Positions 63,358 to 64,000 of a DNA stretch of 64,000 nt are shown here, one piece after another (the first letter of the stretch is position 1; each line of letters begins with the position of its first letter). Both the position numbers and the translations under genes were made by a program. The notes under the pieces were generated by a model. That model was given only the letters and a program-made list of their open reading frames with translations, had not been told where the DNA came from and made no database searches. The stretch lies in the NCBI RefSeq assembly GCF_013122565.1, contig NZ_CP053258.1; one strand, given 5' to 3'. Origin of the DNA: Escherichia coli. GTDB taxonomy: Bacteria; Pseudomonadota; Gammaproteobacteria; Enterobacterales; Enterobacteriaceae.

Positions 63358-63756
63358 ATGATGCCAGTTAGCCGTAATCTCTGCATTTTCATAAACGTTG
63401 GTTTGGGAGAAGCGGCGAAAAGGGATGTGGGCACAGGAGATAATCAGATACCGGATATGGGAGCATTCGCTTCTGGTTCGGGATGGTTCAGGCTACCAGG
63501 TGGATATATTGTTCAGTTTGGCACTTTTTCAGGAAACACGACCCGCTTTATCAGTGGACACTTCCCTATACCATTCCCTAATCAGCCGATGGTTTCAGTC
63601 AGTGTTATGTCTGATGCCGTTCAGTCAGACCCGTCGATTCCTGCCCCGCAGGTTTTGTCTGTAAATTTTGAACATATCAGTAATTCAGCGTGGCGTGTGG
63701 CAACCAGTGATATCTCACAGCAATACAGATTCAGTTATATTTCGATAGGACGGTAG
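63358..63756 (+). CDS. Putative tail-fibre variable C-terminal segment in the non-expressed orientation (132 aa ORF)
   Basis: ORF reads through the crossover site and away from the tail operon; tail-fibre-tip-like sequence; position mirrors the Mu G-segment Sv' arrangement. Confidence 0.5.
   Translation: MMPVSRNLCIFINVGLGEAAKRDVGTGDNQIPDMGAFASGSGWFRLPGGYIVQFGTFSGNTTRFISGHFPIPFPNQPMVSVSVMSDAVQSDPSIPAPQVLSVNFEHISNSAWRVATSDISQQYRFSYISIGR
63385..63410. promoter_or_regulatory. Invertase crossover site (gix/hix-like, 26 bp)
   Basis: Reverse complement TTCTCCCAAACCAACGTTTATGAAAA fits the TTC-N4-AAACC-NN-GGTTT-N-GA-AA pattern of hix/gix sites with one core mismatch. Confidence 0.65.
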
Positions 63757-63758
63757 AA

Positions 63759-64000
63759 ATGCAGAAATATATTTTCAGTGCCGATAAAAATGCGTTTTTC
63801 CCTGTGGAGCTTAAAATCGCTTATCAGGAATCCGGCGAATGGCCCGATGATGGAATCGAAATTGACGACACTGTTGCCGCCGAATTTATGAAGGAAGCAC
63901 CAGAAGGAAAATACAGAGGTGTCATCGACGGAATGCCTGCATGGATTGATATTCCACCGCCAACTCATGAGGAACAAATTGCCGCAGCCGAATTGGAAAA
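63759..64000 (+). CDS. Putative tail-fibre assembly protein, partial (runs off window end)
   Basis: ATG at 63759, MQKYIFSADKNAFFPVELKIAYQESGEWPDDGIEIDDTVAAEFMKEAPEGKYRGVIDGMPAWIDIPPPTHEEQIAAAELE, open to window edge. Confidence 0.55.
   Translation, partial: MQKYIFSADKNAFFPVELKIAYQESGEWPDDGIEIDDTVAAEFMKEAPEGKYRGVIDGMPAWIDIPPPTHEEQIAAAELE

Follow-up and report, generated by a model that had tools for sequence, protein, structure and literature searches.

At the right-hand end of the 64-kb stretch of Escherichia coli DNA analysed here (the window), the late tail operon of a P2-like prophage is followed by a disrupted serine DNA invertase gene and a 26-bp crossover site and, on the opposite strand, by a tail-fibre tip and the 5′ part of a tail-fibre assembly chaperone gene. 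In window coordinates, the features are:

55785-62622, minus strand: P2-type late tail operon (D, U, T, E, FII, FI), reading towards the host flank ogr/ybjL
55785-56885, minus strand: D
57364-60441, minus strand: tape measure gene T
60925-61440, minus strand: tube gene FII
61450-62622, minus strand: sheath gene FI
62765-63336, minus strand: serine DNA invertase gene of the Din family (Pin/Gin-like), its frame broken at 63118/63119 by a 1-bp deletion
62765-63094, minus strand: 109-aa invertase ORF, carrying helix E and the helix-turn-helix (HTH)
63103-63336, minus strand: 77-aa invertase ORF, carrying the catalytic Ser9
63241-63312, no strand assigned: presumed Fis-dependent recombinational enhancer, invertase gene nt 19-90, by positional homology to the P1 cin enhancer
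63358-63756, plus strand: nominal 132-aa ORF with an ATG start, spanning the crossover site
63386-63411, minus strand: 26-bp crossover site identical to pixR, 26-mer TTCTCCCAAACCAACGTTTATGAAAA, located by sequence match and uniqueness scan (outer, invertase-side half 63386-63397; central dinucleotide 63398-63399; inner half 63400-63411)
63400-63756, plus strand: alternative 3′ end of the tail-fibre gene H (H'v), 118 codons from GLGEAAKRDVGTGDNQIPDMGAF, with a Gp53-like C-terminal domain
63759-64000, plus strand: tail-fibre assembly chaperone gene (G'), first 80 of 146 codons, running off the window end

Left of the invertase, the tail operon consists of full-length ORFs. On a short-read contig identical to the window (L003), Pfam recovers Phage_GPD, Phage_P2_GpU, PhageMin_Tail, Phage_TAC_7, Phage_tube, Phage_sheath_1, and Ogr_Delta, and the ogr gene adjoins host ybjL, ybjM, grxA, and nfsA; on the host side, the flank shares 99.4% identity with ybjL-nfsA of E. 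coli. Of the P2 gene order V-W-J-I-H-G-FI-FII-E-T-U-D-ogr, the FI-FII-E-T-U-D-ogr part is present in the window, the invertase and the segment beyond it occupy the place of G and H, and the H-I-J-W-V-S-R-lysis part of the P2-like module is seen only in relatives. Relatives also carry, beyond E (60568-60870), a 39-aa GpE-family ORF that runs into the start of the tape-measure gene, in a position corresponding to about 60434-60553 on the minus strand of the window; such an ORF is the usual P2 E/E+E' frameshift arrangement.

Crossover site and presumed silent cassette

Read on the minus strand, the crossover site is TTCTCCCAAACC-AA-CGTTTATGAAAA. It lies about 50 bp upstream of the invertase gene, between the invertase and the plus-strand ORFs, and holds the same position in relatives. 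It matches the published pixR of the e14 Pin system at 26 of 26 positions (PMC3241671, Table 3), and the site beside pinE in the e14 element of K-12 is identical to it. Din-family sites are recognized as 26-bp imperfect palindromes of the form TTC---AAAC- -A -GTTT---GAA with exchange at the central dinucleotide, a pattern to which this site conforms; against the palindromic Din consensus TTNTCNNAAACC-NN-GGTTTNNGANAA it shows a single mismatch, whereas the next-best places in the window show 5 (at least 5 everywhere else). The preliminary description of this DNA had noticed the site and set it one base off, at 63385-63410; it had also reported no second copy in the window, which both the mismatch scan and the consensus scan bear out. 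The 26-mer TTCTCCCAAACCAACGTTTATGAAAA occurs once in the 64 kb, on the minus strand, and no further copy with up to 3 mismatches is present there (0.00 expected from shuffles). The window extends 589 bp past the site. On the invertase side, the parental junction reads CATTTTCATAAACGTTGGTTTGGGAGAAGCGGCGAAAAGG, and its flipped counterpart is expected to be CATTTTCATAAACGTTGGTTTGGGAGAAGGCTCAGC or a sequence differing slightly from it.

Between the crossover site and the invertase start, at 63350-63369 on the minus strand, lies a weak terminator-like hairpin with a T-run, recognized by consensus match only, which might block read-through from the segment into the invertase gene. Across 62500-64000, terminator-like sites number 6 against a shuffle mean of 1.4, all with short stems, and a sigma-70 promoter scan of the same interval returned promoter-like matches no more often than in shuffled sequence.

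The plus-strand sequence that starts at the site encodes a fibre tip: 63400-63756 matches Pfam Gp53-like_C (E 3e-9), and the tip ORF matches PHROG tail-fibre families solely at their C-terminal ends. A 132-aa tip-like ORF spanning the site had been described previously; the ORF and its tip character stand, but it is only nominally a gene. Its first 14 codons lie outside the segment, antisense to the invertase leader and with in-frame stops upstream, and are fortuitous; the coding sense begins at the crossover site. A GGAG abuts its ATG. An in-frame plus-strand fibre gene upstream, named beforehand as the observation that would count against an invertible cassette, is absent, its place being taken by these stops and by the invertase in antisense. 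We considered a stand-alone or upstream-fused tip gene, which is ruled out by the C-terminal-only family matches together with the in-frame stops. An exact-protein look-up of the 132-aa ORF returned no record, and that of a 101-aa internal ORF only two contigs of about 1 kb.

The adjoining gene from 63759, earlier called a tail-fibre assembly gene, is confirmed as such by matches to Caudo_TAP (E 2e-10, profile positions 2-70 of 131) and to PHROG 188, tail fibre assembly (E 1e-27). The full-length 146-aa chaperones of E. coli GZ2408P (L001) and E. coli N9 (L007) are identical to the window's in their first 80 residues. Neither the tip nor the chaperone has a specific model in NCBIfam, and exact look-ups of the relatives' chaperone sequences found many loci, this strain not among them. 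Because the Gp53-like tip (63400-63756) and the chaperone (63759 on) lie antisense to the tail operon in the window's orientation, we infer that together they form a silent cassette.

A further element of such systems, the enhancer, would fall within the invertase gene itself. Over the 72-bp enhancer annotated in P1 cin (nt 19-90), the corresponding window stretch is identical at 56/72 positions, pinE at 57/72, and gin at 55/72, and all five invertase genes compared share a 15-bp match to the Fis core at gene nt 71-85. The stretch at 63241-63312, which the frameshift leaves untouched, presumably acts as an enhancer; its conservation may reflect coding sequence alone.

The element in relatives

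The completeness of the segment in this genome rests on relatives, because its partner site, constant H region, and other cassette would all lie past position 64000. A megablast search with 62640-64000 returned, at 80% coverage or more, 53 complete E. coli genomes and 13 phage records with up to 97.1% identity, and no complete E. coli genome exceeds 97.1% over this interval; phage records at 96-97% identity include Klebsiella phage KP12 and the Kp48xx series. Of 5426 complete E. coli genomes, 2383 hold one or more matches to the invertase/segment query.

In E. coli GZ2408P and Klebsiella phage KP12 (L002), the sheath gene is followed by the invertase, the invertible segment, the constant H, and then I, J, W, and V. 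Their segment begins with the site and carries the Gp53-like tip and the 146-aa chaperone on one strand, a chaperone of about 200 aa and a fibre tip on the opposite strand, and finally the partner site. The same site-bounded segment followed by Hc-I-J-W-V is found in E. coli N9 and at five further loci (L021-L025). The partner site in relatives, TTCTCC[C/T]AAACC-AA-GGTATG[C/T]GAGAA, is inverted and lies inside H, 1.83-1.89 kb away. All P2-like relatives examined whose sequence covers the whole segment (L001, L002, L007, L021-L025, L029) have two inverted sites. The inverted partner that had been anticipated downstream is thus present in relatives 96-97% identical to the window over this stretch, inside a P2-type H and 1.83-1.89 kb distant. 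For the window itself, the partner is predicted inside H about 1.2-1.3 kb beyond the window end (~65.23-65.29 kb), as TTCTCC[C/T]AAACCAAGGTATG[C/T]GAGAA.

A shufflon-like or multi-site system (Rci; Min of p15B) was considered and rejected: in the P2-like relatives the segment is flanked by no more than two sites, and the recombinase is of the serine type. At one locus (L029) a third site, hix-like, adjoins a second copy of the invertase gene.

The reading frame is the same at both sites, H reading CTT GGT TTA GGA GAA and the window tip GTT GGT TTG GGA GAA. Inverting the GZ2408P segment in silico between the central dinucleotides converts its 519-aa H into an in-frame 468-aa H with the window-type tip. 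The junctions of the flipped state, predicted in silico, served as queries against E. coli genomes, and both recombinant junctions occur there at 100% coverage, with up to 98.3% and 99.7% identity. The latter figure is that of the Hc+tip' junction, for which 31 genomes cover at least 80% of the query; the junction of the invertase with the other tip was likewise found. In several genomes, for example APEC-O117H42, Z142-6, N9, and GF66.2, the two flipped junctions lie 1.9 kb apart. In N9 the flipped form is annotated: a 468-aa H (Phage_tail_fib plus Gp53-like_C) is followed by the 146-aa chaperone, the DNA of its C-terminal end is 99.5% identical to the window tip stretch, and the other cassette adjoins an intact 188-aa invertase gene.

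Opposite orientations were also seen among P2-like loci, with L021, L024, and L025 in one and L022 and L023 in the other, and between two Mu-like prophages (L010 and L013), where a 1894-bp segment is inverted exactly at the sites between flanks 99.8-99.99% identical. The results on both orientations and on the in-frame fusion come from relatives. With that scope, the earlier suggestion of an alternative fibre cassette, as in the Mu G segment, is supported, mostly through relatives: flipped genomes express this tip in H.

A different kind of rearrangement is seen in one draft assembly (L026 4508-8520; GCA_007838995.1, AAIZGR010000017.1). There, two different P2-like tail modules converge on a single tip/chaperone segment with no invertase between them, and the outer half-sites are GGTAATCAAGAA and GGTATGCGAGAA; the arrangement suggests that sites of two prophages have recombined by inversion, or else that the contig is misassembled.

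The invertase frameshift and the state of the switch

In the Hin/Gin/Cin/Pin family, a serine invertase binds both crossover sites and is assisted by a Fis-bound enhancer that lies within the 5′ region of the invertase gene. The invertase dimers synapse on the enhancer in supercoiled DNA, cleave at the central dinucleotide, and religate after a 180-degree rotation of one subunit pair (PMC3798978). Applied to this locus, the complete element would be a segment of ~1.85 kb between two inverted 26-bp sites, one at 63386-63411 and the other inside H, bearing two convergent cassettes that would each comprise a fibre C-terminal tip and an assembly chaperone. Cutting at the central AA/TT dinucleotide, rotation, and religation would exchange the tip-plus-chaperone cassette joined in frame to the constant H, and receptor and host specificity would change accordingly. 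The expressed tip of this prophage would lie beyond the window.

The preliminary description had placed an invertase beside the site; the gene is there, on the minus strand at 62765-63336, with a broken frame that had been overlooked. A 1-bp deletion at codon 73 splits the frame into the two ORFs of 77 and 109 aa. Alignment with two relatives shows the change to be CC to C, ATGCGCAT in the window against ATGCCGCAT in the relatives, in the stretch 63115-63122. Restoring the missing base in silico yields a 188-aa invertase, which was used for the family searches. The repaired protein matches Pfam Resolvase (E 2e-53) and HTH_7 (E 1e-14), Gin of PDB 3uj3 (E 1.8e-90 over residues 1-182), and PHROG 125, DNA invertase (E 1e-99); its identity is 82.4% to e14 PinE and 97-98% to the undisrupted invertases found in N9 and KP12. 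Its conserved features include the catalytic serine (VRVS(9)TNDQ, that is, VRVSTNDQ), the residues said to contact Fis and the enhancer, and, as Q-I-G-R-L-L, the Q-x-x-R-L motif reported to be specific to Fis/enhancer-dependent invertases (PMC3798978).

As it stands, the product is truncated after residue 72 (in the MLIGY-numbered sequence), with the loss of helix E and the DNA-binding domain. A serine recombinase that lacks both cannot be active. Judged by its sequence, the invertase is a pseudogene, its two ORFs being one gene, and a Din member by descent with a dead enzyme. No other invertase was found within the 64-kb window.

Our preferred reading, at a probability of roughly 0.85, is that a P2-like E. 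coli prophage carries here a Pin/Gin/Cin-type invertible tail-fibre segment, of which the window shows the invertase-proximal end, and that the prophage's own invertase has been inactivated, leaving the switch frozen unless a paralogue acts in trans. Because the strain's invertase is dead, switching of its own would be impossible unless an invertase were supplied in trans, and the choice of tip is probably frozen in this strain.

Inversion in trans, by a paralogous Din invertase of another prophage in the same cell, is a possibility that we rate as somewhat doubtful. Action of one system's enzyme on another's sites is established in the family: PinQ, encoded by prophage Qin, inverts the P segment of e14, in which pixR is identical to the window site (PMC12529663). 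Were trans switching to operate here, the host range of this P2-like phage would be under cross-prophage control.

Two short-read assemblies carrying the prophage sheath gene end in this region, one inside the invertase gene (L003, from SRR11451224) and one at the crossover site (L004, from SRR29598430). L004 stops 2 nt inside the segment, its positions 1-2 corresponding to window 63412-63413, and there reads CC before TTCTCC where the window has GC; in relatives, CC is the flank of the other cassette at the partner site (GAGCC|TTCTCC). The SRR29598430 segment could on this showing be flipped despite its dead invertase, the observation being a single base at a contig end. L003 ends at window 63316, in the conserved 5′ stretch of the invertase gene and not at the crossover site. 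Such an end is expected if a second Din-family invertase gene, a candidate for the trans enzyme, lies elsewhere in the genome, and is a weak hint of one.

The strongest competitor of the preferred reading is that the locus is a decayed remnant, with H or the segment truncated beyond the window or the partner site lost, such that no inversion would take place even in trans. The invertase is already a pseudogene, the sequence downstream of 64000 is unseen, KP12 has a broken H gene, and decay has apparently struck independently in GZ2408P, whose invertase is annotated as "frameshifted". Yet the crossover site, the stretch homologous to the enhancer, the tip ORF, and as much of the chaperone as the window contains are intact and 98.5-99.5% identical to functional-looking relatives, and leftward the tail operon keeps its full-length ORFs, all of which makes a remnant improbable. 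The GZ2408P lesion (L001 7126-7693, PGAP label "frameshifted") is a different mutation, an extra T in a T-run, and reflects either independent decay or a homopolymer sequencing error.

Still less probable, to the point of being very unlikely, is that the switch is functional and self-driven, the frameshift being an assembly or sequencing error. Most close relatives do have an intact 188-aa invertase (intact genes were recorded in KP12, N9, and L022-L025), and aligned spans in relatives are mostly 1362 bases against the 1361 of the query. However, the same deletion recurs in the short-read Logan assemblies of SRR11451224, whose contig is 100% identical to the window over 11.9 kb, and of SRR29598430, a distinct strain whose contig has 2 mismatches to the window in 3.7 kb. 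Because it is reproduced in both assemblies, the deletion is taken as a real inherited mutation and not an artefact of the window; moreover, its ATGCCGCAT context contains no long homopolymer. In an exact-protein look-up, the truncated 75-aa invertase fragment matched only in SRR29598430, and a 38-mer spanning the frameshift had 0 matches in one genome-collection contig scan.

That the 26-bp match arose by chance and the plus-strand ORFs are ordinary stand-alone expressed genes can be dismissed: an ATG-initiated 132-aa ORF does nominally span the site, but the site is identical to pixR at all 26 positions with 0.00 matches expected by chance, the ORF matches only C-terminal ends of fibre families while the 14 codons ahead of the site run antisense to the invertase leader, and in relatives the same DNA is fused to Hc.

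The preferred reading of an invertible segment with a dead invertase bears on annotation, in that the 132-aa "gene" is a silent alternative 3′ end of H and the two invertase ORFs are one pseudogene. The locus also tells which receptor-binding tip would be displayed by the prophage, a point that bears on predicting host range, with no new principle involved.

Comparison with known systems

By every sequence criterion testable here except an intact invertase, and leaving aside the second site, which falls outside the window, the locus is a member of the Din family, and its closest counterparts can be set beside it one by one. It shares with the P segment and PinE of e14 (pixL, pixR, stfE/tfaE, stfP/tfaP) a pixR identical at 26 of 26 positions, including the inner half-site TTCTCCCAAACC, an invertase (82% identical) that is transcribed away from the segment and starts ~50 bp from the site, and two convergent tip-plus-chaperone cassettes within ~1.8 kb. 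The two differ in backbone, a lambdoid remnant in e14 as opposed to a P2-like myovirus tail operon here, and in the outer half of the partner site, which is GGTTTTCGAGAG in e14 and GGTATGCGAGAA in the window's relatives. Furthermore, the silent tip here is of the Gp53-like_C type, and the invertase is frameshifted.

With the Mu G segment and Gin, and the P1 C segment and Cin, the locus has in common a constant 5′ part of the fibre gene, a site, and then Sv-U and U'-S'v in the invertible segment, as well as an invertase gene outside the segment and a presumed enhancer in its 5′ coding region. The segment here, at ~1.85 kb, is shorter than Mu G (3 kb) and P1 C (4.2 kb). At its centre the crossover site has the dinucleotide AA, which cix, pix, and hix share, in contrast to the GA of gix. 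The tail backbones of Mu and P1 are different, and in P1, unlike here, cin reads towards the segment. Even so, P1-like plasmid prophages carry a near-identical cassette of Gp53-like tip and 146-aa chaperone between cix sites.

This cassette is distributed well beyond P2-like prophages. The Gp53-like tip and an identical 146-aa chaperone (one of two query alleles) occur in unrelated phage backbones: P1-like plasmid prophages (L009, L012), Mu-like prophages near smpB (L010, L011, L013, L015), and other myoviruses (L014, L017, L028). The cassette is always bounded by the inner half-site TTCTCCCAAACC, and the outer half-sites are those that go with each backbone, be they cix, pix, or P2-type. As such, tip and chaperone behave as an exchangeable module, which illustrates the long-known modular exchange of fibre tips.

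The fibre loci of other P2-like prophages, in enteropathogenic E. coli (EPEC) E2348/69 and in Salmonella Fels-2 (Fin), agree with this one in phage family, in position between H and FI, and in mechanism. Fin of the Fels-2 prophage, with its invertible tail-fibre locus, is reportedly the subject of a 2006 study by Kutsukake et al. In the P2-like prophages of EPEC E2348/69, fibre-segment inversion with coexisting orientations has been shown experimentally (Goldberg et al., 2014; PMC4272514). One EPEC locus has three sites and four variants, whereas the window's relatives have two sites only; and in contrast to the EPEC and Fels-2 loci, the invertase here is dead. The locus is an instance of an already known system, of which sequences 96-97% identical to the window over this stretch have been deposited and annotated, and its sole particular feature is the inherited frameshift in the invertase.
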